Shown: positions 3,611 to 61,126, counted from the stretch's first letter. The stretch is DNA of 64,000 bases from a virus (IMGVR_UViG_3300028550_004390:2734-66733), one strand, 5' to 3'. Numbers and translations are program-made. Notes: generated from the sequence alone by a model not told the origin.

Positions 3611-3650
3611 TGTTAATATACGACATTTATGGTAAGAATAAAAATTTATT
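3611..3650 (-). promoter_or_regulatory. class B promoter (TTTTTAT-N~15-CGTATATTAA)
   Basis: Plus-strand ttaatatacgac...aataaaaat; motif recurs in 7 intergenic regions. Confidence 0.6.
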
Positions 3651-4674
3651 GAAGGGTATTTACAATTGCTGCTGTTGCTAAATATGGATCCACATTTGAT
3701 GACGGTCTGCGATCTTCTAAATAGCCTTTCCAAGTTTTACCTACATTCTCTGGAATTCTTATGGAAGCTCCGCGATCACTTACCCCATATGAAAATTTAC
3801 GAATATCTTGGGTTTCATGTTTTCCGGTAAGTCGCTGGTCATTGTATAGTCCGTAGACCTTCATGTGCGTGTCGTGTTGGTCCTCTAAACGCTCGCATAT
3901 AGCTTCAAAATAGCTTTTTCCACCCTTACCTCTAGTCATTTTTGTGCTGAAGTTAATATGACATCCAGACCCATTCCAATCTCCTAGCACAGGTTTTGGA
4001 TGTAGTTCTATATCTGCTTTAGCATCTTCTGCTTCACGAATTAACAAGAATCTACTTAGTATTAGATTGTCACAAACTTCTAAAGTGTCTTTACCAAACA
4101 ACTGGAATTCCCATTGCCCAAGAGTAACCTCGGCATTTACCCCAGTTATGTCCATTCCAGCTGCTATGCATTGTTCGGCATGTTCTTCACATATCCATCT
4201 GCCAGCTACATTCTTATTTCCAGATGCACAATAGTTTTCACCTTGTGGTGGTGGAGTTCCTTTTGCTGGCCATCCCATTGGTCTTCCATCTTTGAATATA
4301 AAGTATTCCTGTTCAAATCCCCACCAATACTGGTTCTTAGTATATAGGTCTTTGAACTCTCTTAGTTTGGCTCTGGTGTTTGACTCATGAACTGTTCCGT
4401 CGGCATTGTAGACTTCACACAAAACTAATAGATGAGAATTATCATATCCATTTGGGATTATTCGTACAGGTTTCAGAACACAGTCAGAACTATTTCCATC
4501 GGCCTGTTTAGTAGAACTACCGTCAAAGTTCCATTCTGGAAGATCTTCTACCATAACTATGGATGAGTCCATGTCATTTATATATCTTACTTTACTTCTG
4601 ATGTTCTGGACATCATAACCATCAAGCCAAATATACTCGGCTTTTAGGACTTTTTGATTTAAATTATTTATCAT
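3646..4674 (-). CDS. glnII: glutamine synthetase, type II (auxiliary metabolic gene)
   Basis: AEYIWLDG, PEWNFDGSST.QA.G.SSD, GFEQEY, NAEV..GQWEFQ, HPKP..GDWNGSGCH.NFS, RLTGKHET, DRGASIRIP, GYLEDRRPSSN.DPY; likely start ATG 4674. Confidence 0.95.
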   Translation of the reverse strand: MINNLNQKVLKAEYIWLDGYDVQNIRSKVRYINDMDSSIVMVEDLPEWNFDGSSTKQADGNSSDCVLKPVRIIPNGYDNSHLLVLCEVYNADGTVHESNTRAKLREFKDLYTKNQYWWGFEQEYFIFKDGRPMGWPAKGTPPPQGENYCASGNKNVAGRWICEEHAEQCIAAGMDITGVNAEVTLGQWEFQLFGKDTLEVCDNLILSRFLLIREAEDAKADIELHPKPVLGDWNGSGCHINFSTKMTRGKGGKSYFEAICERLEDQHDTHMKVYGLYNDQRLTGKHETQDIRKFSYGVSDRGASIRIPENVGKTWKGYLEDRRPSSNVDPYLATAAIVNTLQ

Positions 4675-4897
4675 ATTTAGGCCATAACTTTTTAGGACAA
4701 CTTTCAGATGCCCAGATTGTTTTTGTGCGGATACGACATCCACATTCTTTACATTTTATTTTCTTCGCATCAAAGCTTGGGCAGGAAAAACATATAAGCT
4801 TTCTCCTCAACTCTACTTCAAATGGAACATCTGTGGGATCTTTCGATCTGCGCCACAACGCCTTTATAAATGTGAATACTACTTTAATAGTTTTCAA
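4664..4897 (-). CDS. small Cys-rich zinc-binding protein
   Basis: CxxC...CxxCGC...CP pattern. Confidence 0.65.
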   Translation of the reverse strand: MKTIKVVFTFIKALWRRSKDPTDVPFEVELRRKLICFSCPSFDAKKIKCKECGCRIRTKTIWASESCPKKLWPKYDK

Positions 4898-5266
4898 TTA
4901 CTTCGCTTTCTTAATGAGTGCTAATGCATTTTGTATTTCTGATAGCTTAAGCTGTAGTTCCTTTGTCTTCTCAGCTAGATTGATTACTTCAGCCGAGTAA
5001 TATCCGGTGAAATATACTTCACTCTTCTTTGAATCTACAGCAGCTTTTGCTCTTGCATGCTTTGGGCTATCCGCTTTATAATAGCCTACTGTTCTCATGT
5101 GACGTCGTCCGTCCAGTTCATATACTTCATATGTGCCCTTCTTCTTTGGACTGTAGGTCGAGAAAAAATCTTTTTCCGCTTGGGGAGTTTTATCTTTTGC
5201 AAGGGTGTTAAGAGCGGCTAACTCTTTGTCATATACACCTTCATTCATAATATCTTTTAATTTCAT
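4898..5266 (-). CDS. putative internal virion protein with MKLKDIMNE leader
   Basis: N-terminus shared with other local ORFs. Confidence 0.6.
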   Translation of the reverse strand: MKLKDIMNEGVYDKELAALNTLAKDKTPQAEKDFFSTYSPKKKGTYEVYELDGRRHMRTVGYYKADSPKHARAKAAVDSKKSEVYFTGYYSAEVINLAEKTKELQLKLSEIQNALALIKKAK

Positions 5267-5277: not shown

Positions 5278-8200
5278 TTATTTCAAACGGCTAAGTGCTT
5301 TACCACACGCTTTGTTGAATTTGTTCATGTGCGGTACAGCTTCTTTATTCTCTCGTTCTTGTATAAGCTCTATGGCCATATCTAAGTGGGCTGTTATACC
5401 TTCATACGTATTGTCGTCATTATCAATAAGCCATTCCTCAAATGCTTCTGAGAGCTTGTATAGCTTTTTCTCACCCATACTAACGGTAGCAAACTTGCCC
5501 AAACCTAATAGGGATTTGATAGGTAGATCTTGAAGTTGAGCTTCATTAACTGACTCTACTATTTTAGCCTTTTTCAATATCTTCATTACATAGTCTTCAG
5601 ACGAATTGCCAGAAGAGGGTGGAGAAAAACTACCATTAGCAGTGACGGACCCACCAACATGTTGACCTCCAAGGAGTAAGTAGTATCGATCGCCAAATCG
5701 AGTAGAATTATTCGAACCCTTAGGGACTTTTACTATTTCCCATTTACCCTTAGCAACTGTCTGTTCCTTTCCTTCATTAACTGATTCACTGAATAGCGTT
5801 TCGCCAGTGTTTGATTCAATCGATATAATAGCATTTGGATATTGTTTTTGTAATTCATTAAACGCTGCTGGAACTGCTGCTGGTGTGTCAACTAATTCTT
5901 GTTTAACAACCATACCGCTATTAATTACTACGATCGTTACAGGATAGCTTCCCTTCTTTGCAGCTTTATGTATCTTACCTCTACTAGCTTCATTTATTTT
6001 GCCTTCTTGGTATAGATCTTTACCTTTATGCTTCTTACCAGTTTTAGTTAGGTTCCTAGCTAGGATTGGGTGAAAGCTTTTTGGTCTTGAGTTAAATTTA
6101 ACATAAGCTACTTGGTTAGCACCACTGCCGCTTACTTTATTAACCAACCCAACTTCCTTTCCTGAGCCAACATAGTCTCCTTTACGAATTTCAGTTAGTT
6201 TGCCTTCTTTAACAACCAAGCTAGCAATTGTATCAATAAACTTTATTGACTTACCAGTCTTAGTGAATTCCACTGTCCATTTCCTTGGGTCCTTTTTGGC
6301 TCCATTGGTACTAACAGTAACTGATTTACCATCATATTTTCCATTTGCTTCACCATTCTTGAACATGAACTTCATGAACCTGTCTCTTTCACTAGTATTT
6401 TGTTTGCCAATGTTAAAATCTTCTTCAACAGATTCTTGGGCATCTTTCCAAGCCTTAGAGTCTGGGTATTCGTCATCGCCTGGCTTTGCAGGAGATTCAC
6501 CCCTAGCCTTTTTCTTTCTGACATTGTCCCAAAGACCTTCAGAAACTGATTCCTTAATTCCTTCTACAACAACCTTGTTTTGTCTGAACATCATGTCCAA
6601 CCAATCTTGAGGCTGCCAACCTGTGTTTCTGCCATAGTTTCCATTGCCTTCCTGATCTACTTTAACTCTATAGCCATCACCATGAGGATTAACAATTTTC
6701 CATTTAGCACCAGTTTTGAATTTTAATATGTCACCCTTTTTAAGAGTTACTTCGGAGATAGATTCCACCTTACCTTTGGATATCTTAGTTCTAAGCTTTT
6801 TAAACTTGTCGTTAATATAGTAGTACCCATATTTACCTGATTTACCACCGCCTAAACCTTTAATATGATTATAAAGAGCTTTATAATGTCCAGACCCTGT
6901 TGCGATAGAATCTATTAGCTTTTTAATTTTAGGATCTTCAGAAAGTATTTTAATAATATCTGCATCAGTTAACTCATCATTAATGTACTTAGCAACTTGA
7001 GCTGTCTGAAAGTCCTGGAGTTCTTTATACTTTATCTTCTTGCCAATGACAGGTAATAGCTTAGCATAGTTGTTGAATCCTTTTTTGAATATCTTACCTA
7101 TGCCTTTGACATCACTTTTTGTTTGTCCCATTAGTTTTGTAAACTTATCATCAGACATTAAAGCAAGTCTTCCTAGAATTCCAGTAGTAGTTATTAGCGC
7201 TGCAACTACCGGTAATGATAGCACCATCTCATTAAGAACCCCTTCAGAAACTGATTCATTATAATCTTCAATGTCAGAATATCTAATTTCGTGTTCTTCA
7301 CCATCTTCATCAACTCCAAAGATAACTTTATCTTGCCACATATCCCAAAAATCCTGCCCTCCTCTACCAGAGTTGGATTCGATATTACTATCGTCACCTT
7401 TCTTAGGATTGTAGATGACATATTGTTTTCCTCTATTGACAGTAATCATACCATCAGCCTTTTTCATGGCTTTCAACAATGAATTCTTGTTGAATTTAGC
7501 TTCGTTAATTGATTTATTCTTTTTCATTATTTTAGCTTCCTTTAAGCTGTATTCCTTTTTAAGCTTTTCCCAAACAGTTTTGTATTTACTTGATAGCTTT
7601 TCACGGCCAAGTACTTTGGATAGCATAATCTTATTGAGAGCAAGTTGCTCATACTCTGGCTCTTTGTCTCTATTGGCTTTTAGTCTAGACTTCTTTTCAA
7701 CATCTTTAATAGCAAGCTTGATCTTGTGCTCATCTTTATTGATGTGTTTGAATTCTGCTTCAGTTAATTTGCTTTCAGTAAGTTTTTTCATTAGCAACGT
7801 TTGAGTCAATGCATTTGCATCTACTGGTCCGTATTTTTTACCATCTTTAGTAAAGGTTACGTAATCTGTTCTTCCACTAGCTTTTTTCTTAACGTCCCAA
7901 CCAAGTTTTCTACCAATTCGCATTGCTTTAGAAGCTCCTAAAGTTGCTACTTCATTAACTGATTCCTTTACGCGATTGCTTGTAAAGGCTCTCTTAACGG
8001 CCTTGTAAAAGTCTTTATGGTATTTCTTAGGAACGTGGTCTGACTTTAAGTAGTCATATAGGTCTTGCTCGTAACTCCAAGATTGATTTGCTGCTTGGTG
8101 TTGAGTTGAACTCCACCTTGCAGCTATATCTAGCATAGTAGCTACATCACTGGGATCCATGAAGTCACCAAAACCTTCTGTTAATTCCACTGAACCTTTC

Positions 8201-10095
8201 GCATACTTACTTGATTTGGAGCCTAATTCTGCTTTATTCCTTTGGTGGTTATGTTTAAGACCACCCTTTTTTAAGAGATAGTTAAATGTCTTTATGGTTA
8301 TGGATGGTCCGACTTGGGATGGAAGCTTCTTAAAGTCTTTTACTTTACCTAAAGCATTACCTTTGAATTTGACGGACAAGTTTCCAAAACCAAATGCAAT
8401 CAAATCATCTAATGTACTGGTCCAAGAACCAATACCCTCGGTAACCGATTCTTTTTTGATTAAGTCTATAGTAGCTAAAGCTAATTTCTTCAATTTATCA
8501 TCCCCATTCTTTTCAGCTTTTACAAGAGAAGATTTAGCAATTTTTAAGCGATCTTCTTTTGATAATACTTCATTAACTGATTCGTCTAGATCTAGATCCC
8601 AACCATACTCTACATATGCAATTGCGTCATCTGGGTCCATATTAAATTTCTTAGCAGCCTTTAAAACAATATCTCTTGTTATTTTGGAGTTTGGTATCTT
8701 AGCGATTATTTTACTAAATCTAGCATCGACACCTACTTCGGGGTTGACCATTGTTTTTTCAAGTATTTCACCTTTGCCTAGATCAAATCTTAAACTAGGA
8801 AACTTAGCAATGTCTACTGCAGTACTACCTCTAAGGGATACTTTCATATTAAATTTCTCGCCGTTTTCATTCTCAACCTCAAATACTTTTTCTGCATTTG
8901 ATTTCTGACCGTAGCCTGTAATAGTGTAGGTTCCTTTCTCAGTTTTGACCGTACTACCAATCTTAAGCTTCTTAGCTGCTTTAGGAGCCATCATAGCTTC
9001 ATTCATCGATTCTCCTATGGTATCTCCTTCTATTCTATTGAACATTATTCCATACACATCACCCTTTCCAAAATCAACGTTAGCCATATCTTGCATCACT
9101 TTAACGACTTTTCCCTTTCTTCCATCCATATATAAAATGTCTCCAACTTTTACTGGTGTGTTAGGATTACCTTCATTAACCGATTCATTAGCCATTTGGG
9201 TTAATGCTTTGTCAATCTGACTTGCTGCCTTTGGATTAGTTTTGTATTGGTCAAGACCTTGTAACCAAGCTTGATATGATTTTTCCTTGTAATTACTTTT
9301 AGGTGTTATTTCTAGGGTTTTACCATTAGATGCTTTAACCATTATCTTATTCGGTCTAGTCTCTTCATGCCAAGATTTAACTGTAAGGCCTTCATTAACT
9401 GATTCGGTTTTTTTTCTGACCTCATCACTAACCCATTTCTTTTCGCTCTTAGACAATTGCTCCCAATCTTTTTTGAATTTCTTTTGGGCTATCTGATCTA
9501 CGTGGCCAGTAAAAAATGATTCTTTAACTGATTCATGGGAGAGCTCTTCGCTATCGTCATTGTGAGGATCTCCAGTCATAAGAGTACCATCAGGCATTTT
9601 ATGAGTTGGTCCAGTCCATTCCTTACCATCTTTTGTATAGTGTTTTTGGCCTGGTCCTTCATTAACTGATTCTTTTAATTTAGATATGCTCCAAAATTTA
9701 TTTTGATAGTCTGCATAACCATCTAGGTATTTCTGTGCATCCTTTAGGGTTTTAAATTTATAGGCTTTAGAAATCTTCCGATCAGATACCCACTTTGGAC
9801 CTTTTGAGTTATCCCTGACTCGCCAACCAATATCTTTTACATATTTAGGACTTCCAGTCTCCTTACTTTGAATAACATAATATTCTGCACCTTCATTAAC
9901 TGATTCTTTAAGGTCAAGTGCCTTGGCAATAGTCTCTCTAAACTCATCTAACTCATCGTCATTAAGCTTTCTAAATTCTGATCTGAGTTTAGCAACATAT
10001 TTGTCTGCTAGGTCCTGACCCTTACCTTCGGTTATTTGATCAACTAGTTGGTTGACTTCTTCACCTATTATTTTTCTTAAATCTGATGGTTTCAT
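5278..10095 (-). CDS. 1605-aa modular polyprotein-like protein with ~20 modules separated by ESVNE-like linkers (putative internal head protein precursor)
   Basis: 8 exact ESVNE plus ESMNE, ESVTE, ESVSE x2, ESISE, ESVEE, ESVKE, KSINE, KINE and KLTE linkers; Lys-rich small domains between them. Confidence 0.8.
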   Translation of the reverse strand: MKPSDLRKIIGEEVNQLVDQITEGKGQDLADKYVAKLRSEFRKLNDDELDEFRETIAKALDLKESVNEGAEYYVIQSKETGSPKYVKDIGWRVRDNSKGPKWVSDRKISKAYKFKTLKDAQKYLDGYADYQNKFWSISKLKESVNEGPGQKHYTKDGKEWTGPTHKMPDGTLMTGDPHNDDSEELSHESVKESFFTGHVDQIAQKKFKKDWEQLSKSEKKWVSDEVRKKTESVNEGLTVKSWHEETRPNKIMVKASNGKTLEITPKSNYKEKSYQAWLQGLDQYKTNPKAASQIDKALTQMANESVNEGNPNTPVKVGDILYMDGRKGKVVKVMQDMANVDFGKGDVYGIMFNRIEGDTIGESMNEAMMAPKAAKKLKIGSTVKTEKGTYTITGYGQKSNAEKVFEVENENGEKFNMKVSLRGSTAVDIAKFPSLRFDLGKGEILEKTMVNPEVGVDARFSKIIAKIPNSKITRDIVLKAAKKFNMDPDDAIAYVEYGWDLDLDESVNEVLSKEDRLKIAKSSLVKAEKNGDDKLKKLALATIDLIKKESVTEGIGSWTSTLDDLIAFGFGNLSVKFKGNALGKVKDFKKLPSQVGPSITIKTFNYLLKKGGLKHNHQRNKAELGSKSSKYAKGSVELTEGFGDFMDPSDVATMLDIAARWSSTQHQAANQSWSYEQDLYDYLKSDHVPKKYHKDFYKAVKRAFTSNRVKESVNEVATLGASKAMRIGRKLGWDVKKKASGRTDYVTFTKDGKKYGPVDANALTQTLLMKKLTESKLTEAEFKHINKDEHKIKLAIKDVEKKSRLKANRDKEPEYEQLALNKIMLSKVLGREKLSSKYKTVWEKLKKEYSLKEAKIMKKNKSINEAKFNKNSLLKAMKKADGMITVNRGKQYVIYNPKKGDDSNIESNSGRGGQDFWDMWQDKVIFGVDEDGEEHEIRYSDIEDYNESVSEGVLNEMVLSLPVVAALITTTGILGRLALMSDDKFTKLMGQTKSDVKGIGKIFKKGFNNYAKLLPVIGKKIKYKELQDFQTAQVAKYINDELTDADIIKILSEDPKIKKLIDSIATGSGHYKALYNHIKGLGGGKSGKYGYYYINDKFKKLRTKISKGKVESISEVTLKKGDILKFKTGAKWKIVNPHGDGYRVKVDQEGNGNYGRNTGWQPQDWLDMMFRQNKVVVEGIKESVSEGLWDNVRKKKARGESPAKPGDDEYPDSKAWKDAQESVEEDFNIGKQNTSERDRFMKFMFKNGEANGKYDGKSVTVSTNGAKKDPRKWTVEFTKTGKSIKFIDTIASLVVKEGKLTEIRKGDYVGSGKEVGLVNKVSGSGANQVAYVKFNSRPKSFHPILARNLTKTGKKHKGKDLYQEGKINEASRGKIHKAAKKGSYPVTIVVINSGMVVKQELVDTPAAVPAAFNELQKQYPNAIISIESNTGETLFSESVNEGKEQTVAKGKWEIVKVPKGSNNSTRFGDRYYLLLGGQHVGGSVTANGSFSPPSSGNSSEDYVMKILKKAKIVESVNEAQLQDLPIKSLLGLGKFATVSMGEKKLYKLSEAFEEWLIDNDDNTYEGITAHLDMAIELIQERENKEAVPHMNKFNKACGKALSRLK
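5541..9906. repeat. dispersed 16-bp repeat CTTCATTAACTGATTC (encodes ESVNE)
   Basis: Exact copies at 5772, 7950, 8568, 9390, 9657, 9891; single-mismatch copies at 5541, 9171; variant CCTTCAGAAACTGATTC at 6536 and 7241. Confidence 0.9.
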
Positions 10096-10096: not shown

Positions 10097-10279
10097 TTAT
10101 ACCCACTTATTATTATATCCTGACCTTTGGTCTTCTAACACATATTCAACATGATCGTTTGTACCACAGTGTGGACAGTTCAATCTATCTAAATCAGCTG
10201 CCTCATTTATCTTCCATTCTTCGACACAACTGCTACACTGATAGATGTATGTGTGTCGTATGAAGACTTTATGTGACAT
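10097..10279 (-). CDS. zinc-ribbon protein
   Basis: CSSC...CPHCG. Confidence 0.7.
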   Translation of the reverse strand: MSHKVFIRHTYIYQCSSCVEEWKINEAADLDRLNCPHCGTNDHVEYVLEDQRSGYNNKWV

Positions 10280-10345: not shown

Positions 10346-10570
10346 TTATTTTTTACCTGCAAACTTTTCTAAGCCTGCAATACCAAAGCATCCTAGTACT
10401 ACCATTACGAATGAATTGTATATAGCCTCATTAATAACTAAGTCCTTGCCAAAGGCTCCAGTTGTTACGTCAGCTACCATTACTACTGTCATTATTAAAA
10501 ATGCACAAAAACCTACTATAGATTTTTCATTGTAGTCATTTTTGTCTTTAAATATGTCTTTCCAGCTCAT
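10346..10570 (-). CDS. small 2-TM membrane protein (holin-like)
   Basis: Two hydrophobic segments, basic C-terminus, AGGAG RBS, late motif upstream. Confidence 0.55.
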   Translation of the reverse strand: MSWKDIFKDKNDYNEKSIVGFCAFLIMTVVMVADVTTGAFGKDLVINEAIYNSFVMVVLGCFGIAGLEKFAGKK

Positions 10571-10590: not shown

Positions 10591-10600
10591 TATAAATATC
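10591..10600 (-). promoter_or_regulatory. putative late promoter GATATTTATA
   Basis: Same 10-mer upstream of several structural/lysis genes. Confidence 0.65.
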
Positions 10601-10940
10601 AAAAACCATTCATTATAGCTTCACTTATTGCATCTTGAATTTCATCTTGTGTGACTTCTAATACCATCATTATGTTTGCTTGAAACCTTGCTACTTCAAC
10701 ACCATCATTAAATACTACCACCGATGGTACTACTACGATCTTGTGTTCTTTCTGTGCAGCTGTGTTGGCAAATATATCGATCCTTAGGGTTTCGCAGTCT
10801 TCCAGGGCTTCTAGGAATTCACATTTAGTTGGCGAGAATGGAGCATTGAACTCAACCACCTCTATTCCTTCACCTTGAATTTCTTGAGTATAAACCATTG
10901 TTGATATGCATATTAATAAAAACGCTAAAATGTATTTCAT
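10599..10940 (-). CDS. secreted thioredoxin-fold protein lacking canonical CxxC
   Basis: Signal peptide; VVEFNAPF...KIVVVPSVVVFNDGVEVARF (cis-Pro thioredoxin pattern). Confidence 0.65.
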   Translation of the reverse strand: MKYILAFLLICISTMVYTQEIQGEGIEVVEFNAPFSPTKCEFLEALEDCETLRIDIFANTAAQKEHKIVVVPSVVVFNDGVEVARFQANIMMVLEVTQDEIQDAISEAIMNGF

Positions 10941-11597: not shown

Positions 11598-12665
11598 TTA
11601 GAATATTACATAGTTGACGCCGATAGAAAAATCGTGCCAAGCTCTGTTCCAGTATTTGTTATATTTTCCTTCTGCAAACACTCCAAGGTGCTTATCAAAT
11701 TTATATCCAAAAATTAAACCTCCTGAGAAGTCTGTCCATTGTCCATCATTGAATTCATGATAGCTAAATTCATTGTTGCCTTGTATATGGTATGGCATTA
11801 GGTTACCCCAAGAATGTAACCAAAAGTCTTTAGTGTAGTAATAGTAATCAAAGCCTACGACTAATGAATGTTGTAGGTTGTTAGCTAGTTTATTCCTTTC
11901 TTGTTCTGTATAGTCAGCTAATACATCAGGTATAACAACACCTTCCCATATCTGGATATTCTCTGCTACTAGAGTTCCTGAAGGGTCATAGTATGTTTCT
12001 CCACCTATTCCGTCAAAGTCTATTGTATAACCTTGTTGCAATGCTAGATCTGTATAGTGTAGATTACCATTTGACAATAGCCAATCTGATAGAGGATCAT
12101 ACCCATAAGGTTCTGATAGTCTTTGTACTGTTCCAATATTTAGGGATAGCTTTTTGCCTATGTTATATCTATACCTCTGTGAAGACTCGAAGTATTCTAT
12201 ATCTGCAAAGCCATCTTGTAAATATTCTACTTTTGCTATCCAATCATCAGCTACATACCTAAGGAAGTGATGCTGATTTAGAAAGTTAGTTCCTTGCTGT
12301 CTTGTGTAGTCACCTTCAAATAAGAATTCAAAGCCTTTTATCTTACCAATCGTTGCAGCATCTGCATATGAATTTTCAGTTCCATCATAAAATACTTTTT
12401 CTCTATTCTCATATCCCAATCTAGCAATCTTTCTTATGCCGAATGTAATTGAATAGTCGAATGGTGTTTCAATGACTTCTGTTTGTAATCCATTTGTAAT
12501 AGAATATACATCTACATCAGATATAGAATTTCCCCCATTTACTGCACCATAGAATGTTGCAAACTTGAAAGTCTTCTTTAGGTTCTTATTGAATGCACTT
12601 TGCTCCTGGCTTATTCCCAAGATAGGGATTAGAAGTAATAGTACTGATAATAAAAGGTTTCTCAT
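11598..12665 (-). CDS. putative outer-membrane beta-barrel protein
   Basis: Sec signal peptide, aromatic-rich alternating strands, C-terminal GVNYVIF (BAM beta-signal-like). Confidence 0.65.
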   Translation of the reverse strand: MRNLLLSVLLLLIPILGISQEQSAFNKNLKKTFKFATFYGAVNGGNSISDVDVYSITNGLQTEVIETPFDYSITFGIRKIARLGYENREKVFYDGTENSYADAATIGKIKGFEFLFEGDYTRQQGTNFLNQHHFLRYVADDWIAKVEYLQDGFADIEYFESSQRYRYNIGKKLSLNIGTVQRLSEPYGYDPLSDWLLSNGNLHYTDLALQQGYTIDFDGIGGETYYDPSGTLVAENIQIWEGVVIPDVLADYTEQERNKLANNLQHSLVVGFDYYYYTKDFWLHSWGNLMPYHIQGNNEFSYHEFNDGQWTDFSGGLIFGYKFDKHLGVFAEGKYNKYWNRAWHDFSIGVNYVIF

Positions 12666-13567
12666 TTCTTTATATCCATTTTTTTGTTTTTTATGTATTC
12701 AACCATAATCTTTATCTTAGGCTTATACCAATCCGGAGTCCTGTCTATTATACCAAGGTATTCCGACTTCTCTTCGTCCATTCTAACAGTTATCTGGAGA
12801 TCTGTCAAGTTTAAAAGGATTTGGCTAGATGTTGATAGAACATCCTTATCGGTTGAGTTTTGCACTTTGTCTTTGTCTCTATAAGGATTGTCCCTCATAT
12901 TCACTGGATAGTAGCCGCTTAGGCCATCTAATATATCTAGTGGGTTTTTAGCTTTAGTTAAAACTGCGTGAGCAATATTCCATCTTGATTCTGATGATTT
13001 CCTATTTGCCCCGGATGTATATCCTGAATCTTTGTATTCGTAACCATGATTAGTCCTAACATGGTTTAAGCTTCTATCCATTTTATTTATCGTTGGAGAA
13101 TGCTTAGAGGTCATTTCTATAGAGACAGAGTTTTTAGGGTCTGCTATGAATGTATGCCCCTTGACACCAATATCTAGTTTATCCTTTCCAAAAAATTTAA
13201 TTAGGGATTCAATGGACTTAGCGATTGTTGGATAGCTTAAAGCTTTTCTAATTTTGAGACCATCCTCAGAGACTTTACCTTTGTGCTTAATGATCTTCTT
13301 TTCTTTCTCATCAGCATTTACCATCAATGCTGAATTTAGAATGCCTATTCCTGCAGAGTTCATACCTTCAGACCAATCTGTTTCGTCGTCCAATATGTAT
13401 ACCAATTCAATATCACCTATCAATTCTCTTACAACATTTACCTTAGCATCGTAAGCTCGGTCACGATTCTTTGCTAATAATACTTTATTACCTAGTACTG
13501 AATGTGTTATTATGCATTCATTTAGGGTGGCTTTAGGTTTTATTAATATGTTTTTGAGCTTAATCAT
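12662..13567 (-). CDS. Ntn-hydrolase (peptidase C45/C59-like) with N-terminal leader
   Basis: LNE-CIIT...LLAKNRDR...WSEGMNSAGIGI...VRTNH...SSESRW; Cys18 is the candidate nucleophile. Confidence 0.7.
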   Translation of the reverse strand: MIKLKNILIKPKATLNECIITHSVLGNKVLLAKNRDRAYDAKVNVVRELIGDIELVYILDDETDWSEGMNSAGIGILNSALMVNADEKEKKIIKHKGKVSEDGLKIRKALSYPTIAKSIESLIKFFGKDKLDIGVKGHTFIADPKNSVSIEMTSKHSPTINKMDRSLNHVRTNHGYEYKDSGYTSGANRKSSESRWNIAHAVLTKAKNPLDILDGLSGYYPVNMRDNPYRDKDKVQNSTDKDVLSTSSQILLNLTDLQITVRMDEEKSEYLGIIDRTPDWYKPKIKIMVEYIKNKKMDIKK

Positions 13568-13866
13568 TTTATGATTCTTTTTATGGCTTGTACTGTGAAC
13601 GGATACGCCTTACCCTTTCCCTTTTCATCCCATATAACAATTTCTGATTTGTTGGTCTTTATTTTTAGTGCTGCTTTTGCCATAGTTAAAGCATTCCTAT
13701 AATCAAACACCAAAGGGTTGCCATCAACACTTGTCGTATGCTTTTGAATCATACCATCTCTATGGATAAAATAAGGGTCATCTCCACTTCTTTGGGATAT
13801 CTTTATTTGGAAATCATAGTAGATAGAATTCTTAGCTTCAGTTAATATGTCTTTAAGCTTGATCAT
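13564..13866 (-). CDS. putative internal virion protein with MIKLKDILTE leader
   Basis: Shared leader; ATGA overlaps. Confidence 0.6.
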   Translation of the reverse strand: MIKLKDILTEAKNSIYYDFQIKISQRSGDDPYFIHRDGMIQKHTTSVDGNPLVFDYRNALTMAKAALKIKTNKSEIVIWDEKGKGKAYPFTVQAIKRIIK

Positions 13867-14396
13867 TTACCATACATTCTTTTTATTACGGTTCCACCTT
13901 TCTTAAGCTTTCTTTCATAATAACCATCTTCAAGGTGTTTAATAAACTTAGGACCAACCATCTTTTCAATTTTCTTTTTATCCAAGACTACGGGTGCACC
14001 TTTAGATGCCATAATTTGATCCATTTTTTTACTGCCTTCTAGCCTATATCCGGACTTAACCATGGCGACAGCTTTTTTAACTACTGCACTTTTTGCTGCA
14101 CTTTGACCGTCAGTTGCTAATAGCTTAACCACCTTACCTCTTGTGAATATAAATGCATCTGGCATTGGGTCTTTATCTACATCTATTAACATTACTATTT
14201 CATAACTACTTTGTAGTTCACTTGCAGAGAATGCTGATAGTTGTAGACCTTCAGCTGAATAAACTGCACTATACATCTTGAATAGTTTGTCCATTATCCT
14301 TTCGTCAATAGATGAAAGCTGTTGGGATATCCACTTTTTCTTAGGGTGGTCGTCTAAGTTATAGTCTTCTTTTAATATGTCTATTAGTTTAATCAT
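13863..14396 (-). CDS. putative internal virion protein with MIKLIDILKE leader
   Basis: Likely start ATG 14396 (TAATG overlap with the upstream stop). Confidence 0.6.
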   Translation of the reverse strand: MIKLIDILKEDYNLDDHPKKKWISQQLSSIDERIMDKLFKMYSAVYSAEGLQLSAFSASELQSSYEIVMLIDVDKDPMPDAFIFTRGKVVKLLATDGQSAAKSAVVKKAVAMVKSGYRLEGSKKMDQIMASKGAPVVLDKKKIEKMVGPKFIKHLEDGYYERKLKKGGTVIKRMYGK

Positions 14397-15286
14397 TACC
14401 ATGCCTTGCAAGACCAATATCCTGCTGATGTTTTATCTTTCTTCTGGTCACACTTATGTCTTGCTCTAAATGATTTTCTTGCATCAGGATTATCCTTTCT
14501 GATCCTTTGGGTTTCTTGTCCTGCTTTCTTAGCGGCTTTACCACCTTGACCAAAGTGAACAACTTTTATATTTCCAGATGATGGATCTTTTACATAGACC
14601 TTAAACTTCTTTTGGTCACCTTGCATAGGTTTATTAAGCTTAACCTTTCTGCCTTTATACTCTGCCTCTTGAAATACAACAGGTTCTGAATGCTCTACTA
14701 GTTCTATTCTTAAAGAGCTATTTTTATATATTGATTTTTCCATGCTTTCCTTTATTAAGCTTGTTTTAGATTTAACTTCAGGATGTCTTTTTAACATTTT
14801 ATCTACTGCTGCTATATTTTTAGAACTGTCGTCCATAAAATACACTGTGTCATATCCTTTTTTAATTTGTCGTTCAATCCAATCTGCTTTAACTTTTGGA
14901 TCGGCACTACCTACCGGTACAACATATGCATCTATACCAACAGATCTTAAGAAACTAGAAACAGGAGCTCCTAAAGATCTTGCAGTTAATATAGTCACCT
15001 TCCTTGCACCCTTAGAAGATCTTCTGGCTTTATCTAATTGCTTTCTTAATAGATCTGCATTCTTTTTAATTAGCTTGGGATTCTGTAATGGTCGATCGAA
15101 ATCTTTGAAATCGAACTCTTCTTCTGGAGCAGCCTTGTATACTGCAAACTGAGCAGGGTCTAGCTTCTTAACTACCTTACCATTTTTTGTGACATATATC
15201 CATGCATCAGATTTTGCAATAGTGTCGTCGAAATCGAATACACTTAATACTTTGCCTTCCTCTAATATGCCTTTGAATTTAATCAT
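14396..15286 (-). CDS. HAD-family phosphatase-like domain fused to a basic C-terminal phage domain; MIKFKGILEE leader
   Basis: VFDFDDT (motif I), ILTAR (II), K, FMDD (IV); second module AEYKGRKVKLNKP...FRARHKC...YWSCKAW follows FQE. Confidence 0.75.
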   Translation of the reverse strand: MIKFKGILEEGKVLSVFDFDDTIAKSDAWIYVTKNGKVVKKLDPAQFAVYKAAPEEEFDFKDFDRPLQNPKLIKKNADLLRKQLDKARRSSKGARKVTILTARSLGAPVSSFLRSVGIDAYVVPVGSADPKVKADWIERQIKKGYDTVYFMDDSSKNIAAVDKMLKRHPEVKSKTSLIKESMEKSIYKNSSLRIELVEHSEPVVFQEAEYKGRKVKLNKPMQGDQKKFKVYVKDPSSGNIKVVHFGQGGKAAKKAGQETQRIRKDNPDARKSFRARHKCDQKKDKTSAGYWSCKAW

Positions 15287-15342
15287 AATGATGTGTCAGG
15301 GAACCAGTTGTCATTTTCTAATATGTTTTCTGGATCCTTCAT
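15283..15342 (-). CDS. 19-aa mini-ORF (MKDPENILENDNWFPDTSL); not in ORF track
   Basis: Fills the intergenic gap exactly, with ATGA start/stop overlaps at both ends. Confidence 0.5.
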   Translation of the reverse strand: MKDPENILENDNWFPDTSL

Positions 15343-18450: not shown

Positions 18451-18460
18451 TATAAATATC
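18451..18460 (-). promoter_or_regulatory. putative late promoter GATATTTATA
   Basis: Exact motif ~35 bp upstream of 18415. Confidence 0.65.
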
Positions 18461-31687: not shown

Positions 31688-33349
<1,662 letters not shown>

Positions 33350-33359
33350 TTATATCTCT

Positions 33360-33638
33360 TTATACTATGGTTAATAATTCAGGTTCTCTTATGACTAGGT
33401 ATTCCTCGCCTTCATGGTCAAACTTTTTTGCCCCATGCTTTGGGTATATTACGTGGTCTCCCACTTTTGTTTGCATATCGCCACGGTCTCCACTCATTAG
33501 GTGAAAGCCAGGACCTACCGCGATTATTTCCCCGACCATTGTTGCCTCTTGGGACGTGTCAGGGATTATTACTCCGCCAGTTGTGATGTCTTGTGCATCT
33601 ACGGGCTTTAAAACTACCTTATCGGAAATTGGTTTCAT
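33360..33638 (-). CDS. groES: co-chaperonin GroES
   Basis: KPISDKVV...TTGGVIIPD...AVGPG. Confidence 0.95.
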   Translation of the reverse strand: MKPISDKVVLKPVDAQDITTGGVIIPDTSQEATMVGEIIAVGPGFHLMSGDRGDMQTKVGDHVIYPKHGAKKFDHEGEEYLVIREPELLTIV

Positions 33639-33666
33639 ATATATTACTCTTTTTTTAATTTAATAT

Positions 33667-36129: not shown

Positions 36130-36151
36130 TCTTTTGTTGTTTGTTTATATA

Positions 36152-36206
36152 GCTAATATACGACTTATTTGGCTATTACTACGATAAATAGCGTTAATTT
36201 TTAAGA
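36152..36206 (-). promoter_or_regulatory. 55-bp class A promoter cassette, copy 4 (upstream of PolB)
   Basis: gctaatatacgactt...actacgat...cgttaa. Confidence 0.7.
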
Positions 36207-36644
36207 TTATTTTTCACCCGTACTGCCAAAACCACCTTCACCTCTTGCTGACTCTTTTTCATATAACTGAGCTTCTGGGACAATATTAACATTGTGTGGA
36301 CCTAATGGTAATAATACAAATTGAACAATCTTATCACCAGGATTAATGACCTGTTCGAATTCCCCAACGTTTGTCAAATTTATATGCACTTCACCTTGAT
36401 AGCCATTATCAACTACGCAAGCTCCTACATGCAAAGATTTTTTGACAGCTATTCCTGATTTATTAAATGCAACTAAAACAAAGCCTTCGGGGACATTTAC
36501 CTTGACTCCAGAAGCTATTAAGCAAGATTCTCCAGGAGCTATCCTTACCATAGGGTTATCTTCTGGCACGAAGAAGTCTATTCCAGCGTCGGTATTGTTT
36601 GCTCTTGTAGGAGCCTTTACATTTCTAATTTTAGATATTTTCAT
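36207..36644 (-). CDS. dut: trimeric dUTPase
   Basis: AGIDF, KSG, VVDNGYQGE, GDKIVQ, RGEGGFGSTG. Confidence 0.93.
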   Translation of the reverse strand: MKISKIRNVKAPTRANNTDAGIDFFVPEDNPMVRIAPGESCLIASGVKVNVPEGFVLVAFNKSGIAVKKSLHVGACVVDNGYQGEVHINLTNVGEFEQVINPGDKIVQFVLLPLGPHNVNIVPEAQLYEKESARGEGGFGSTGEK

Positions 36645-37387
36645 TATTTATTCTTTTGTCTTAAGACTCCAAGTTCATTCTTGAAGACGTGTAGGGAAAC
36701 TATATGCATATTAAAATAGCCTGGTTTAACATTTTCCCAACCGGGCTCTTTTTTAAGTTGCTCTAACATCCAAAATAGCTTTCCACAAGCTAAATAGATA
36801 TCATCTCTTAAGTGTCTTAGGTAGTCACAAGATCTCATATAGTAAGTTAGATGCATAACATCGCCTCTTCTGATAAAGTGGTATCCTATTGTACATGGGA
36901 CTCTTTCATTATGGGTTGCTCCAGTATCTTCTGGAAACCACATAGGCAAAAATGCTTGTCTGGTGAATGGCTCTTTACGTAACATATCTACTACGTCACC
37001 CATATTGCCATAATCATATCTTATGCCTTTTAGCTTTGGAGTCCATAGCCTTTCTGGATACGTATGACTAAATTTAGTATCAGCTTTGAATTGGGTATTA
37101 CCACTTTGTGCAAATGGCCACCATTCATTACTTGGGGGTGGGTTTAGAGGTTCGCCACCGACTCTTTCATTCAAATGGTCTTTAGCCCATGGGAGGTTTG
37201 GTCGAACCTCATCAATCACTTGTACCATATTGTCAGGTATGACGAATTTGATGGTGTGGTTTAGAAGTTCGACCATTGGTTGTTCAACATTAATAGATTG
37301 CCATTTGCCAGAAAATACCTCGACACCGTTTTTGTGGAGCTTTTCTTTTGCAAATCTAATGGCATCTTTTGGTTTTGTGAACATCAT
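36644..37387 (-). CDS. thymidylate-synthase-family enzyme, probably dCMP-modifying (hydroxymethylase-like)
   Basis: TRQA, VPCT (catalytic Cys), MRSCD...LRDDIY with Asp at the E. coli ThyA Asn177 position, SLHVF. Confidence 0.8.
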   Translation of the reverse strand: MMFTKPKDAIRFAKEKLHKNGVEVFSGKWQSINVEQPMVELLNHTIKFVIPDNMVQVIDEVRPNLPWAKDHLNERVGGEPLNPPPSNEWWPFAQSGNTQFKADTKFSHTYPERLWTPKLKGIRYDYGNMGDVVDMLRKEPFTRQAFLPMWFPEDTGATHNERVPCTIGYHFIRRGDVMHLTYYMRSCDYLRHLRDDIYLACGKLFWMLEQLKKEPGWENVKPGYFNMHIVSLHVFKNELGVLRQKNK

Positions 37388-42692: not shown

Positions 42693-43742
42693 TTATTGTT
42701 TTAAACCTGCCATAGTGTCGAGATAAATAAACGAGTCCCTGAGCCAAAACTCTGGGTTGTTAACTATCTTCATCCTATCATCTTGCAAGTATTTTAAAAA
42801 TTCGGATGGAGCCAAACGGGCTGTCGGCTGCTCTACGATATTTCGAATGGATTCTTTAGCCACTCCAGATATATCAACTTCATGTAACTGCATCAATCGG
42901 AAATTTAGATCTAAAAGCTTTTCAGAGGCTGCTATAGTGTCTAGCACTTTAGCTTCGTCTTTCCTCTGCTTAGCATCTTCTATCACATCATCCATTGAAA
43001 CAATAGTCTCTCCAAATAACATTGGGAGACGTTTCTCTAGTGTTTTCTGCCCAAGGCCTTTAATGCCTGGTATGTTGTCGGACTTATCCCCAGTCAGAGA
43101 CTTATATAGAATATAGTTCTCAGGCCTTAGCTTGAACCGATCTTTCATATCTTCCTTGAAATAAAACTTTTTTGCTGTTGGGGACCAAACTGCTATCTTA
43201 TCATTGATAAGTTGTAAAAAGTCCGTATCCGTAGACATGATAAAGTGTTGGCTTTCTGGCAGGATCTGTTTTGCTATATATGCTATAGCATCATCAGCTT
43301 CTATCTTTTCAGTAGCCATCACAGTAACAGGAAGATGCTCCAAGTACTCAGTCAGTCTATGTATTTGTTGGCCCATAGAAACTCGTTCGTCTTCACCACT
43401 CGAATTAGAATTTATTCGGGTTAAGCGATTATTAACTGTTCTTTGGGCTTTGTAGTTTGGAAATAGCTTTTTACGTCTAGCAGATCCGCCCTTACCATCA
43501 AAACAGATTATAACTCTCGTTGGCTTAATATGCCTTATAGCATATCCAATAGAAAGGAGGAATCCTGTTATACCACCGATATGTATTCCATCTTCGTTAG
43601 TTGCTGGATTACATGTGTATGACCTGATAAACGTATTAAGTCCATCTATCAACAACACCCGGTCGTTAAGCCCCCGAGGGGCAGATTCCTCCTTTAGATT
43701 GGCTAGGATATCTAAATATTTAACCTTGTGGGACATCGTCAT
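42693..43742 (-). CDS. 5'-3' exonuclease / RNase H (FEN family)
   Basis: LIDGLN, FDG, YKAQR, EADDAI, STDTDFLQL, GDKSDNIPGIKGLG. Confidence 0.92.
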   Translation of the reverse strand: MTMSHKVKYLDILANLKEESAPRGLNDRVLLIDGLNTFIRSYTCNPATNEDGIHIGGITGFLLSIGYAIRHIKPTRVIICFDGKGGSARRKKLFPNYKAQRTVNNRLTRINSNSSGEDERVSMGQQIHRLTEYLEHLPVTVMATEKIEADDAIAYIAKQILPESQHFIMSTDTDFLQLINDKIAVWSPTAKKFYFKEDMKDRFKLRPENYILYKSLTGDKSDNIPGIKGLGQKTLEKRLPMLFGETIVSMDDVIEDAKQRKDEAKVLDTIAASEKLLDLNFRLMQLHEVDISGVAKESIRNIVEQPTARLAPSEFLKYLQDDRMKIVNNPEFWLRDSFIYLDTMAGLKQ

Positions 43743-44844
43743 TGCCTATTTCAATGTCATCAATACCTATAGCATCAGTCTTGTAATCCATAATCATGGA
43801 ATCGCAAATCTGATTATATAGCCGGTCTTTCCGTTCAGGGTCATTTAATATTTTAGATTCGAACTCTTTAGATTGAAACTTAATAATCTCTCCAGTTAGT
43901 TCGTCAGTATAGGTATACCAAGCTCCAGCTTGTGCTACTAGTTTTGCATCTTTCATCATTTGTAGCCAAGAGCCATAGTCATCAATCCCACTATCAAATA
44001 GAATATTAAATTCTGCTGTTCGTAGTGGTGGTCCCATTCTATTTTTAACTACTTGGGCTTTGGTTTTGATCCCAATGACTTGGTCTTTACCATTCACTTT
44101 GACTTTGATTTGGCCTGCAGCTTTGAGTCTTAATCTACAACTTGCATGAAAGCCAATAGCTTTACCGCCTGATGTAGTATAAGGATCTCCAAACATAGCA
44201 CCCAACTTAACTCTCAATTGATTTGTAAATATCAAACATATTCTTTGACGTCCAATCATCTGAGTTATCTTTCTCATTGCTTTTGAAAGAATGATAGCTT
44301 TTTGGGTTGCCCAACCTGTCTGGTCGAAATCATCAGCCTGTTCAACTTTTGTTGTAGCTGCTGCCACAGAATCTACTACGATAGTAACCAAACGGTCTTT
44401 ATCTGATTCTCTAACTTTGGTAATAATATTCTCGATAACTTCGAAAATATCTTCAACCGTTTCCAATTGAATATATAGCATCTTAGATACGTCAATACCA
44501 ATACACTTTGCAAAGTCTTCATTCATTGCATTTTCAGTATCAATATAGACAGCTAAGCCACCTTTCTTTTGAGTGTTTGCCAGAAGATGGGCAGCTAGCA
44601 GGGATTTCCCGCTAGCTTCTAAGCCCGTCAATTCTGTTATCCTACCTACAGGTAAGCCTCCATTTTTGCGATTGGAAATAGCAAGGTCCAATATACTTGA
44701 ACCTGTGCTAATCCATTCTCCTAGATCAGTTGGAGTATCCTCCGAACCATCTAGAAAGTACGCAACCTTGAAAGACTTAAACTTCTTGTTTAATGAGTCA
44801 GCTAATGAATTAGCCAAGTCGTCTGTTCTTTGAGCTTTAGACAT
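43720..44844 (-). CDS. uvsX: RecA/UvsX recombinase
   Basis: GLPVGRITE, GLEASGKS, IDTE, VVDSVAA, FTNQLR, GGKAIGFHASCRL. Confidence 0.93.
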   Translation of the reverse strand: MSKAQRTDDLANSLADSLNKKFKSFKVAYFLDGSEDTPTDLGEWISTGSSILDLAISNRKNGGLPVGRITELTGLEASGKSLLAAHLLANTQKKGGLAVYIDTENAMNEDFAKCIGIDVSKMLYIQLETVEDIFEVIENIITKVRESDKDRLVTIVVDSVAAATTKVEQADDFDQTGWATQKAIILSKAMRKITQMIGRQRICLIFTNQLRVKLGAMFGDPYTTSGGKAIGFHASCRLRLKAAGQIKVKVNGKDQVIGIKTKAQVVKNRMGPPLRTAEFNILFDSGIDDYGSWLQMMKDAKLVAQAGAWYTYTDELTGEIIKFQSKEFESKILNDPERKDRLYNQICDSMIMDYKTDAIGIDDIEIGNDDVPQG

Positions 44845-47800: not shown

Positions 47801-47810
47801 TATAAATATC
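47801..47810 (-). promoter_or_regulatory. putative late promoter GATATTTATA
   Basis: Exact motif. Confidence 0.6.
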
Positions 47811-50310: not shown

Positions 50311-50320
50311 TATAAATATC
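50311..50320 (-). promoter_or_regulatory. putative late promoter GATATTTATA
   Basis: Exact motif 10 bp upstream of the ORF. Confidence 0.6.
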
Positions 50321-59123: not shown

Positions 59124-59133
59124 TATAAATATC
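59124..59133 (-). promoter_or_regulatory. putative late promoter GATATTTATA
   Basis: Exact motif. Confidence 0.6.
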
Positions 59134-60264: not shown

Positions 60265-60274
60265 TATAAATATA
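60265..60274 (-). promoter_or_regulatory. putative late promoter TATATTTATA
   Basis: Variant of the late motif. Confidence 0.55.
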
Positions 60275-61116: not shown

Positions 61117-61126
61117 TATAAATATC
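61117..61126 (-). promoter_or_regulatory. putative late promoter GATATTTATA
   Basis: Exact motif upstream of tube. Confidence 0.65.

Follow-up and report, generated by a model that had tools for sequence, protein, structure and literature searches.

The internal proteins of bacteriophage T4, IPI, IPII and IPIII (and Alt), are unrelated small proteins that have in common only a short leader ending in hydrophobic-x-Glu/Ala (here and below, a slash in a peptide marks an actual or predicted cut). The leader is a capsid-targeting sequence of 10 to 19 residues, and it is cut off by the prohead protease, which in the T4 family cuts after Glu at a short motif (PMC9026906; PMC5694885). It loads the proteins into the prohead core before being removed, and the proteins are then injected and counter host defences (PMC3012670; PMC9026906; PMC12373910); Ip1 to Ip3 enter the host and block restriction enzymes (PMC12373910; PMC3012670). 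The leader is also conserved as DNA: ipII and ipIII both start with MKTYQEFIAE/A and have 32 identical nucleotides (nt) but are otherwise unrelated, and ipI starts with MKTFKEFTSTTTPVSTITE/A. The ip loci of T-even phages are hypervariable, and Repoila et al. are said to have proposed in 1994 that shuffling takes place at the leader of the T4 ip genes. Here we describe a gene that recalls this system, found in a stretch of 64,000 nt of viral DNA (IMGVR_UViG_3300028550_004390:2734-66733; "the window" refers to this whole stretch). The open reading frame (ORF) at 5278..10095 on the minus strand, encoding 1,605 amino acids (aa), is a mosaic of units bounded by a short linker, most often ESVNE, and the DNA of the linker is conserved to a degree well above what coding would require. 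Between closely related natural genomes, whole units have been lost or replaced, with the ends in the linkers.

In T4, every internal protein has a gene, a start and a leader to itself, whereas up to about 22 modules are fused here in one frame. The signal appears to recur internally as a linker, a joint in frame inside the ORF, and one leader would load all the modules. The leaders found here are similar to those of T4, for example, MKTFKHFHEFINE/G and MKHLKRYTKFVNE/M. No homology of the modules to IPI, IPII or IPIII was found with Pfam, and PHROGs gave a single weak and unrelated family of unknown function (aa 1184-1234). This absence weighs little, since there is no relationship among the T4 internal proteins either (PMC12373910).

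The PeSL cassettes (promoter-early stem-loop motifs), mobile regulatory elements that mediate modular shuffling in T4-type phages, are likewise short DNA motifs that flank variable genes, and indels or replacements between close relatives end in the motif (PMC2839356; PMC4122927). However, PeSLs are intergenic promoter or terminator elements that move whole genes, whereas the motif studied here is coding, 15 to 16 nt long and frame-keeping and appears to move modules within a gene. All its copies in the ORF lie in frame within that one ORF, and none is an intergenic promoter or terminator. In giant phages (phiKZ gp175, SPN3US gp245, 201phi2-1), many head and ejection proteins are processed by gp21-related proteases, which cut after Glu in a three-residue motif; one protein often has several such sites, and the protease also shortens itself at the C terminus (PMC5694885; PMC9026906). 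The extra sites there are mostly in discarded propeptides, and neither a chain of unrelated cargo modules with a fixed linker of 5 to 8 residues between them nor conservation of the sites at the DNA level is described. Polyvalent proteins (Iyer et al. 2017) are large, combine 2 to 15 unrelated domains, and, according to predictions, are packaged and enter the host together with the DNA to act in conflict with it, some of them being processed (PMC5512222). Their domains are known enzymatic or conflict domains, often with an embedded peptidase. In contrast, this ORF has tiny modules and a uniform linker that fits a prohead protease, and no recognizable enzymatic or conflict domain was found, as no Pfam-A family reached E <= 0.01 over the 1,605 aa.

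The polyproteins of RNA viruses are single products cut at recurring protease sites, such as those of picornavirus 3C, with a fixed gene order and no joint at the DNA level. Integron cassette arrays grow and shrink at recurring attC sites, with whole genes moved by an integrase. Both ideas appear combined here in one coding repeat. Among the T4 internal proteins, the PeSL cassettes, the giant-phage head proteins and the polyvalent proteins, there is none in which unrelated cargo modules are chained by an in-frame joint that is conserved as DNA and also recurs as a protease site. No report of such a linker-jointed polyprotein was found in a literature search, whose coverage did not extend to supplements and subscription journals. 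On the whole, we consider it probable that the linkers serve both as recombination joints and as head-protease sites of a cargo polyprotein.

A DNA-conserved linker and its module boundaries

With up to two mismatches allowed, the 16-mer GAATCAGTTAATGAAG occurred 12 times in the window, always on the minus strand, and 11 of the 12 copies lay within 5541-9906. Six were perfect (at 5772, 7950, 8568, 9390, 9657, and 9891), two had one mismatch (5541 and 9171), and three inside the ORF had two mismatches (6537, 7242, and 9519); the sole match outside the ORF, at 25935, also had two. The copies at 6537 and 7242 read GAATCAGTTTCTGAAG (ESVSEG) and were identical across 17 nt. These counts agree with those of the initial annotation, which had listed six perfect and two single-mismatch 16-mers together with two identical 17-mer ESVSEG variants. 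In dinucleotide shuffles, the mean number of matches was 0.11, and 0 of 100 shuffles reached 12. All in-frame copies of the window sit inside the 1,605-aa ORF, where they spell ESVNE and supply the first base of a codon for Gly, Ala or Val. The consensus of the linker peptide was [LIV]-[KN]-E-S-V-N-E-[GA], and 15 motifs of the form ES[VIML]xE (strict linkers) were present in the ORF, including an ESVNE-G with one mismatch (TCG) at 9169..9186 (aa 304-308) and the variant ESVEE-D at 6418..6435 (aa 1221-1225). These and all other linkers given below are on the minus strand. Every canonical linker also contained TAA-TGA in the -1 frame and ATG-AAG in the +1 frame; internal starts at the out-of-frame ATG were ruled out, as no matching ORF follows.

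Next, the DNA identity of the linkers was compared with codon usage, since the initial annotation had cautioned that AT-biased codons alone would produce part of it. Three codon tables were used: one from the contig outside the ORF, one from the ORF, and one from the ORF minus its linkers. The probability of the exact 15-mer given ESVNE was 0.033 to 0.058 across the three tables. In the window, 6 of the 8 ESVNE copies were identical, against an expected 3 to 6% (P of about 4e-8 to 1e-6). The sample of relatives consisted of 29 metagenome loci fetched by means of peptide patterns from module interiors, without the canonical linker (one pattern held ESMNE). Their linker-bearing ORFs provided 116 linkers in distinct contexts. 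ESVNE accounted for 82 of them, and the exact 15-mer was found in 64 of these 82, against 5% expected (P = 7e-66). Among the ESVNE copies of the relatives, AAT was used in 82/82, GTT in 78/82, and TCA in 71/82, compared with background levels of 71%, 43%, and 28%, respectively. The identity stopped sharply at the linker edges, where the codons of the flanking Lys or Asn and Gly or Ala varied, and repeat finding detected nothing longer than the linker plus a few flanking bases. In viral contigs, the exact 16-mer gave 132 matches, 107 of which were in frame as ESVNE in open frames of at least 100 codons. The identity was therefore far higher than codon usage predicts, which answers the caveat. 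A short DNA motif conserved beyond coding need thus flanks unrelated segments, as in a cassette system.

A word-indexed search found 26 long relatives, 25 of which had the same linkers. In an exhaustive search with aa 1-1200, 549 cluster representatives were matched at E <= 1e-3, 247 at E <= 1e-10, and 33 at E <= 1e-30; with the clusters formed at 50% identity, at least 549 match these first 1,200 residues alone. The representatives were 96 to 1,404 aa long among the matches listed. The modules of the ORF recurred in the relatives in other orders and combinations, with a DNA identity of 69 to 99% module by module. In one relative (L123), modules with 75% to 99% DNA identity to the window occurred in scrambled order, one of them twice, a pattern that we read as a mosaic of different ages. 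Single-linkage clustering of the modules merged everything, and high-scoring segment pairs (HSPs) were mapped directly instead. Counting unique protein HSP ends away from protein termini (n = 136), 48 lay within 3 aa of one of the 15 strict linkers, against 10% expected (P = 5e-15), and clusters of ends formed, for example, at aa 187-192 on the variant ESVKE-S (9517..9534, aa 188-192; two mismatches) and at aa 1436-1443 on an ESVNE-G with a perfect 16-mer (5770..5787, aa 1437-1441).

The remaining clusters of protein HSP ends sat on degenerate linkers, and the HSP ends defined six such joints. DQITE/G (10024..10041, aa 19-24) closes the N-terminal leader MKPSDLRKIIGEEVNQLVDQITE. SVELTE/G (8173..8190, aa 636-641) corresponds to the cluster at aa 638-653 and matches the 17-mer at 9 of 17 nt, and KLTESKLTE/A (7756..7773, with aa 775-780 shown) corresponds to the cluster at aa 770-780. 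KSINE/A (7498..7515, aa 861-866) has AAC for Asn and lies in the cluster at aa 859-870. EGKLTE/I (6187..6204, aa 1298-1303), next to HSP ends at aa 1292-1295, is 81% like the EGKINE copy at the DNA level (family D6), and this second copy, EGKINE/A (5986..6003, aa 1365-1370), lies in the cluster at aa 1364-1375. At the DNA level, 56 of 131 HSP ends were at strict linkers (10% expected) and 27 were at degenerate ones (4% expected). In total, 83 of the 131 DNA ends thus coincided with linkers (14% expected), so the module boundaries of relatives do fall at the repeat, a check that had been proposed together with the initial annotation.

The strict and degenerate joints split the ORF into 22 modules of 23 to 164 aa. 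When the modules were compared with each other by BLASTP after the linkers had been stripped, the best E value was 0.029, and none was significant. The modules flanking the linkers are therefore without similarity at the sequence level, as had been noted initially, and since no pair is significantly alike, the ORF is not a tandem duplication of one domain. The product has an isoelectric point (pI) of 9.4 and contains 14.6% Lys, and the pI was above 9 for 12 of the 22 modules. No usable match to the ORF was found in the ESM Atlas. A function based on fold was also sought and rejected: an AlphaFold2 model of aa 1116-1441, made from a 13-row alignment of locus fragments, had a mean predicted local distance difference test (pLDDT) value of 45.7 and was confident only at about aa 1371-1441. 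The best fold match of this predicted segment was a Rubisco-small-subunit-like domain (Z of 8.2, root mean square deviation of 2.3 over 72 residues), with T4 Dmd (Z of 6.0) and AcrIF9 (Z of 5.5) ranking lower. No function was drawn from these matches because all the Z values are in the range that the tool calls common.

Part of the ORF was present in at least 24 marine or seawater runs, which belong to 14 studies. For four runs, each from a different study, the ORF was aligned with Logan contigs, in which rare forms and frequencies are invisible. They gave 18 joints, 15 of which are listed and considered here. The joint 9655>9890 skipped 234 nt, which is exactly the module at aa 69-146. Its left end in run X3 is the linker LK-ESVNE-G at 9889..9906 (aa 64-68) and its other end is the linker LK-ESVNE-G at 9655..9672 (aa 142-146), both perfect 16-mers, with 20 nt common to both sides and no other difference on 266 and 206 nt of flanking sequence. 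The joint 8435>8568, found in two runs (X4 and X5), skipped 132 nt, corresponding to the module at aa 510-553, between an ESVNE-V with a perfect 16-mer (8566..8583, aa 505-509) and the variant ESVTE-G (8434..8451, aa 549-553). A loss of 705 nt (aa 952-1186; joint 6535/6538>7241/7244) was present in all 4 runs, between the identical ESVSE-G 17-mers at 7240..7257 (aa 947-951) and 6535..6552 (aa 1182-1186), and in run X3 a contig of the undeleted form coexisted with the deleted form. The joint 6749>9390 skipped 2,640 nt from linker to linker, with its ends at a perfect ESVNE-G copy (9388..9405, aa 231-235; run X3) and at the variant ESISE-V (6748..6765, aa 1111-1115). Several joints and loose ends, at 7950 and 7970, were found at the ESVNE-V at 7948..7965 (aa 711-715; perfect 16-mer), and further joints started from 5553 at the ESVNE-A at 5539..5556 (aa 1514-1518; one mismatch, GAG) or were located at the degenerate linkers KLTESKLTE/A (7762) and EGKINE/A (5988 and 5994).

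The losses of 234, 132, 705, and 2,640 nt are all multiples of three and in frame. Among the joints listed, 20 of 30 ends lay within 12 nt of a strict linker (13% expected; P = 2e-11), 4 were at degenerate linkers, and 11 of 15 joints had both ends at a linker. Thus, in relatives and metagenome contigs alike, indels and replacements end in the motif. The initial annotation had proposed that the repeats act as in-frame crossover points for the gain, loss or exchange of modules and that this be checked against metagenomic breakpoints; the codon and breakpoint tests support the proposal, the latter with contigs rather than raw reads. The assembler's word length was presumably 31, and linkers are not expected to have been collapsed by assembly, since the repeats (16 to 20 nt) are shorter than that. 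Along the ORF, dips in contig depth and uncovered bins were also seen, for example, at 6566-6887 in run X2.

The linker peptide and the N-terminal leaders

The peptide context of the linker was examined in the 116 linkers of the relatives. A hydrophobic residue was present at position -2 in 89, Lys or Asn at -1 in 55, and Ala or Gly at +1 in 83. Since the codons at these three positions vary, conservation of the peptide extends beyond the DNA core. Degenerate joints have kept no more than [IL]-[NT]-E-[GA] and match at 8 to 13 of 17 nt of DNA, but modules still end at them. In the ORF, the motif [VIL][NTS]E[GA] occurred 15 times, compared with 0.55 times in shuffles of its own residues, and 15 times across 107 other phage ORFs (30,809 aa). 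The linker fits the hydrophobic-x-Glu/Gly or Ala rule of T4-type prohead proteases, and its sequence features indicate that it is above all a peptide signal, most likely a prohead-protease site, a role that the initial annotation had not considered.

No prohead protease gene was found on the contig of the window, which stops just upstream of the tail sheath gene. A contig (G006) of a near-identical strain, which overlaps the window by 4,929 nt with 33 mismatches, carries head genes. It encodes a Peptidase_S77 protein (PF03420; E = 6.7e-33) that is 36% identical to T4 gp21, and a prohead protease of the gp21 type is thus part of this phage's gene set. T4 removes 65 N-terminal residues of its major capsid protein gp23 (PMC9958956). 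The major capsid protein of G006 has QLISE/AN, which aligns column for column with FLTE/AE of gp23 (E65, A66). The C-terminal part of the G006 protease has TPAVNE/S where T4 has TPKEITE/S, and the scaffold protein has SMTE/G. In another contig, G001, which contains two ESVNE-linked ORFs, [VI]NE[GA] occurred 12 times in 111 ORFs. Four of these motifs were in the capsid protein, the scaffold (RTVNE/G), the protease (SPVNE/G), and the gene beside the protease; six were in the two modular ORFs, one in a leader (MKLRKLINE/AG), and one elsewhere. As in a viral polyprotein, a single ORF thus contains recurring sites, 15 strict and 6 degenerate, that match the predicted specificity of the phage's own protease.

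The leader of the large ORF, MKPSDLRKIIGEEVNQLVDQITE/G, was conserved at the N terminus of relatives P0002 to P0011, and a short leader ending in hydrophobic-x-Glu plus a small residue, as in T4 internal proteins, was found in the ORF, its neighbours, and its relatives. Modules of the ORF were also found directly behind leaders in other proteins, as in MKKIKLPNEFVNE/AEFKNIN.. and MKTFKHFHEFINE/GMLSPK..; further fusions were MKHIKTFNSINE/AKFNKKKL.. and MKKSELRQLIREEIKKSYSVNE/GPGQKHY... The modules that follow the variant linker ESMNE-A (8995..9012, aa 362-366) and the degenerate linker KLTESKLTE/A stand behind N-terminal leaders elsewhere, and the one after KSINE/A follows leaders such as MKHIKTFNSINE/A. 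The leader MKTFKHFHEFINE/G resembles those of T4. Because modules of the ORF recur directly behind T4-like leaders, leader and linker look like two uses of one signal. The locus of more distant relatives consists of several consecutive genes that all have individual leaders (for example, MKHLKRYTKFVNE/M, MKHIPTYKDFKQLLTE/S, and MKYIKTINE/A), and some of these leader-bearing genes also have internal ESVNE linkers.

It may be argued that the linker is a tolerated spacer as well as a joint and that the product, associated with the virion or not, is an uncut, beads-on-a-string multidomain protein like the unprocessed polyvalent proteins. The virion RNA polymerase of phage N4, a packaged polyvalent protein, does stay unprocessed (PMC5512222), and conservation at the DNA level alone would fix the peptide. 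We nevertheless regard such a spacer as unlikely. The peptide motif, hydrophobic at -2, Lys or Asn at -1 and Gly or Ala at +1, is wider than the DNA core and is kept while the codons vary, and the degenerate linkers retain [IL][NT]E[GA] without DNA identity. In addition, the N-terminal leaders of single-module genes terminate in this motif, and it also marks the aligned maturation site of the capsid protein and the tail of the protease. Cleavage of the linker by a T4 gp21-type prohead protease, as part of a head-loaded cargo polyprotein, is therefore the reading that we hold to be probable.

Leader-bearing genes were also found near the ORF. The 122-aa gene directly downstream (4898..5266, minus strand) starts with MKLKDIMNE/G, and the DNA of its leader is 77% like that of the KLKESVNEG linker (family D8). 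Four adjacent genes at 12662..15286 (minus strand), encoding 301, 100, about 178, and 296 aa, have a common leader, MIKLK(D/N)IL.., ending in ..TE/A, ..KE/D or ..EE/G; the individual starts are MIKLKNILIKPK, MIKLKDILTE/A, ..MIKLIDILKE/D, and MIKFKGILEE/G. None of the four had a Pfam family above the cut-off, and the 296-aa product combines a DxDxT-like start (FDFDDT) with a C-terminal PHROG 7595 domain. Judged by their leaders, these genes are candidates for separately encoded head-targeted proteins. A 631-aa protein of G006 (L240, 15507-17402), located behind the promoter-like motif described below, has two tandem Zeta-toxin/AAA_33-type kinase domains, each following ..KE/G (MKSIKE/GVYD.. and ..YLKE/GINDKY..), and relatives P0019 to P0025 fuse a kinase domain of the same type to ESVNE-linked modules.

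Proposed mechanism and competing explanations

The breakpoints and the DNA conservation of the linkers together argue strongly that the linkers are in-frame recombination joints, which we consider very probable. Short-homology recombination between linker copies, within a genome and between coinfecting relatives, would delete, insert, duplicate, and reorder whole modules while the frame is kept. Such movement would keep the 15 to 16 nt near-invariant, synonymous sites included, while the modules diverge. Cassettes with consensus joints would move most, whereas diverged joints would become fixed seams; consensus-joint cassettes would then dominate what is seen because they are the most mobile. 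A UvsX-like recombinase, the strand-exchange protein of the phage itself, is encoded in the window (43720..44844, minus strand; phrog_97, E = 1.5e-73). We regard UvsX, which the initial annotation had named, as no more than a candidate for the enzyme acting at the linkers, leaning slightly against it.

The codons could instead be held by selection on translation or on alternative frames, for example, for accuracy or speed at an essential cleavage site or for the tandem stops TAA-TGA in the -1 frame, with recombination as a by-product. All the linker codons are major codons, and GTT-AAT-GA yields TAATGA in the -1 frame, which would favour GTT (78/82) and AAT (82/82). However, hidden stops put no constraint on TCA (71/82 against a background of 28%) or on the third bases of GAA. 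No fixation of codons is seen in the degenerate linkers, although breaks occur at them just as well and they fit the cleavage rule to the same extent. Spread as DNA units is seen for local variants, for example, the two ESVSEG 17-mers and three identical GAATCAGTTACTGAGGCT copies in relative L001. Selection of this kind is improbable as the cause. A sequence-specific nuclease or recombinase that recognizes the 16-mer, similar to a homing endonuclease or an integron integrase, is more improbable still: a sharply bounded, near-invariant core of 15 to 16 nt across many phages does resemble a protein recognition site, but no such enzyme was seen adjoining the gene here or in relatives, and joints also formed between nonidentical linkers (ESVNEV with ESVTEG, with 1 nt shared) and at degenerate linkers. 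Finally, although GAA, TCA, GTT, AAT, and GAA are each the commonest or co-commonest codon of their family in the phage, the notion that the identity is merely AT-biased codon usage on a recurring peptide, with no DNA-level phenomenon, can practically be discarded because the share of exact copies (6/8 in the window and 64/82 in relatives) is far above the 3 to 6% expected and the identity ends sharply at the linker, while degenerate linkers and leaders in the same genes use mixed codons (AAC, ACC, ACA, and ATA).

With the linkers as joints and as cleavage sites, the following route can be proposed. The N-terminal 23 or so residues would act like a capsid-targeting sequence of T4, so that a single leader would bring the entire chain into the core of the prohead. 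A gp21-type protease would then cut after Glu in hydrophobic-x-Glu/Gly or Ala and divide the chain into about 20 mostly basic mini-proteins. These would stay in the head with the DNA and enter the host, like the internal proteins of T4.

Several observations weigh against this combined explanation. Concerning recombination, 48 of 131 DNA HSP ends were off the linkers, often where similarity fades within a module, and so were 6 of the 30 joint ends. The population evidence consists of assembled contigs rather than raw reads, so chimeras are possible. That recombination or selection holds all five linker codons is a matter of argument. A length of 15 to 16 nt is short for efficient strand-exchange recombination, as seen in work with T4, and slippage or annealing rather than UvsX may be the route. 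Concerning cleavage, [VIL][NTS]E[GA] is also present in proteins that are unlikely to be cut, for example, the DnaB-like helicase. The head genes come from G006, a contig with 99.3% identity, and not from the window's own contig, and the predicted site of the capsid protein is LISE/A and not VNE/G. The AlphaFold2 model, with its mean pLDDT of 45.7, was too poor to show whether the linkers are exposed. In addition, megablast and tblastn searches with the ORF against 50,697 cultured-phage records gave no match.

If the two proposed roles hold, the same 15 to 16 nt would mark the protease release of each cargo and permit the in-frame exchange of modules between phages, and the scheme of T4, with one leader for one protein, would extend to one leader loading some twenty swappable proteins. 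More tentatively, the ESVNE-coding 16-mer could be the attachment point of an in-frame cassette system across a large population of marine T4-like phages, in which one short sequence is a recombination joint, a cleavage signal, and a relative of the leader. In such a system, hundreds of mini-protein modules would circulate as cassettes that are spliced into or dropped from one head-targeted polyprotein, forming an integron-like, rapidly re-assortable kit of injected effectors. The modules represent a large pool of small uncharacterized proteins that are probably injected into marine Bacteroidota, a natural place for anti-defence functions. The locus also offers a testable case for the old question of whether a sequence can be maintained because it promotes recombination, and the linker is a simple handle for finding such genes in metagenomes.

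Promoter-like motif and gene neighbourhood

The modular gene is separated from the head and tail genes, but a promoter-like motif that it has in common with them, (G)ATATTTATA(TA), precedes it. One copy, at 10591..10598 (minus strand), is 28 nt upstream of a 74-aa ORF that heads the tight gene row leading into the modular ORF. Of the 11 minus-strand copies in the window, 8 were intergenic, 18 to 75 nt upstream of a start codon (63276-63283, 61117-61124, 60265-60272, 59124-59131, 50311-50318, 47801-47808, 18451-18458, and 10591-10598). They precede the tail sheath, tube, and hub genes and five other window genes, and the motif was also found upstream of 10 further genes on G006. The genes served include tail, lysis-like, and other genes, and the motif was absent from replication genes. 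This distribution makes the motif a candidate late promoter of the phage group. Together with the basic composition of the modular protein, the motif is an indirect hint that the product may be packaged and ejected into the host. The late promoter of T4, TATAAATA, was not enriched on the gene strand, with 16 matches on both strands against 10.3 expected, and it was its reverse reading that pointed to the (G)ATATTTATA motif. On G006, five consecutive genes at 31925-37479 (L155, 1651-7205) have a shared N terminus and unrelated bodies, starting with MANWKKIIL.., MAWKKVITS.., MPQDWKKVIT.., MATWQKLIL.., and MSSWKELEL..; they are perhaps fibres with a common anchor.

All the genes of the window are on the minus strand and are of phage type. 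The window was taken from a viral contig of 66.7 kb, the phage being a marine myovirus of the T4-like type that is uncultured, and it encodes a tail sheath, tube, and baseplate, a family-B DNA polymerase, a ribonucleotide reductase, a DnaB-like helicase, a UvsX-like recombinase, SSB, GroEL/GroES, and exonucleases. The nearest cultured relative of the tail sheath is that of Flavobacterium phage vB_FspM_immuto (45% identity), and more distant matches are from T4-like cyanophages and coliphages. An 824-aa ORF at 15339-17813 (minus strand) has a C-terminal type-IX-secretion sorting domain (Por_Secre_tail; E = 3.8e-11), an uncommon feature for a phage and one that suggests a Bacteroidota host. Judging from these sequences, the host is probably a member of the Bacteroidota. 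The genes for GroEL (553 aa; E = 4e-156) and GroES (92 aa) are adjacent at 31688-33638 (minus strand), and a gene for a UvdE-type UV damage endonuclease (PF03851; E = 3e-62) at 45706-46629 (minus strand) adjoins the SSB and UvsX genes.

Two genes downstream of the modular ORF, at 3646-4743 (minus strand), is a glutamine-synthetase-like gene (Gln-synt_N and Gln-synt_C), and this neighbour is also kept in relative L122. Just upstream of the modular ORF are three small ORFs on the minus strand, at 10097-10279, 10346-10570, and 10599-10940, which encode a zinc-ribbon-like protein of 60 aa, a two-helix membrane protein of 74 aa, and a signal-peptide protein of 113 aa. Each of the three has one [VI][NS]E/A motif (KINEA, VINEA, and AISEA).

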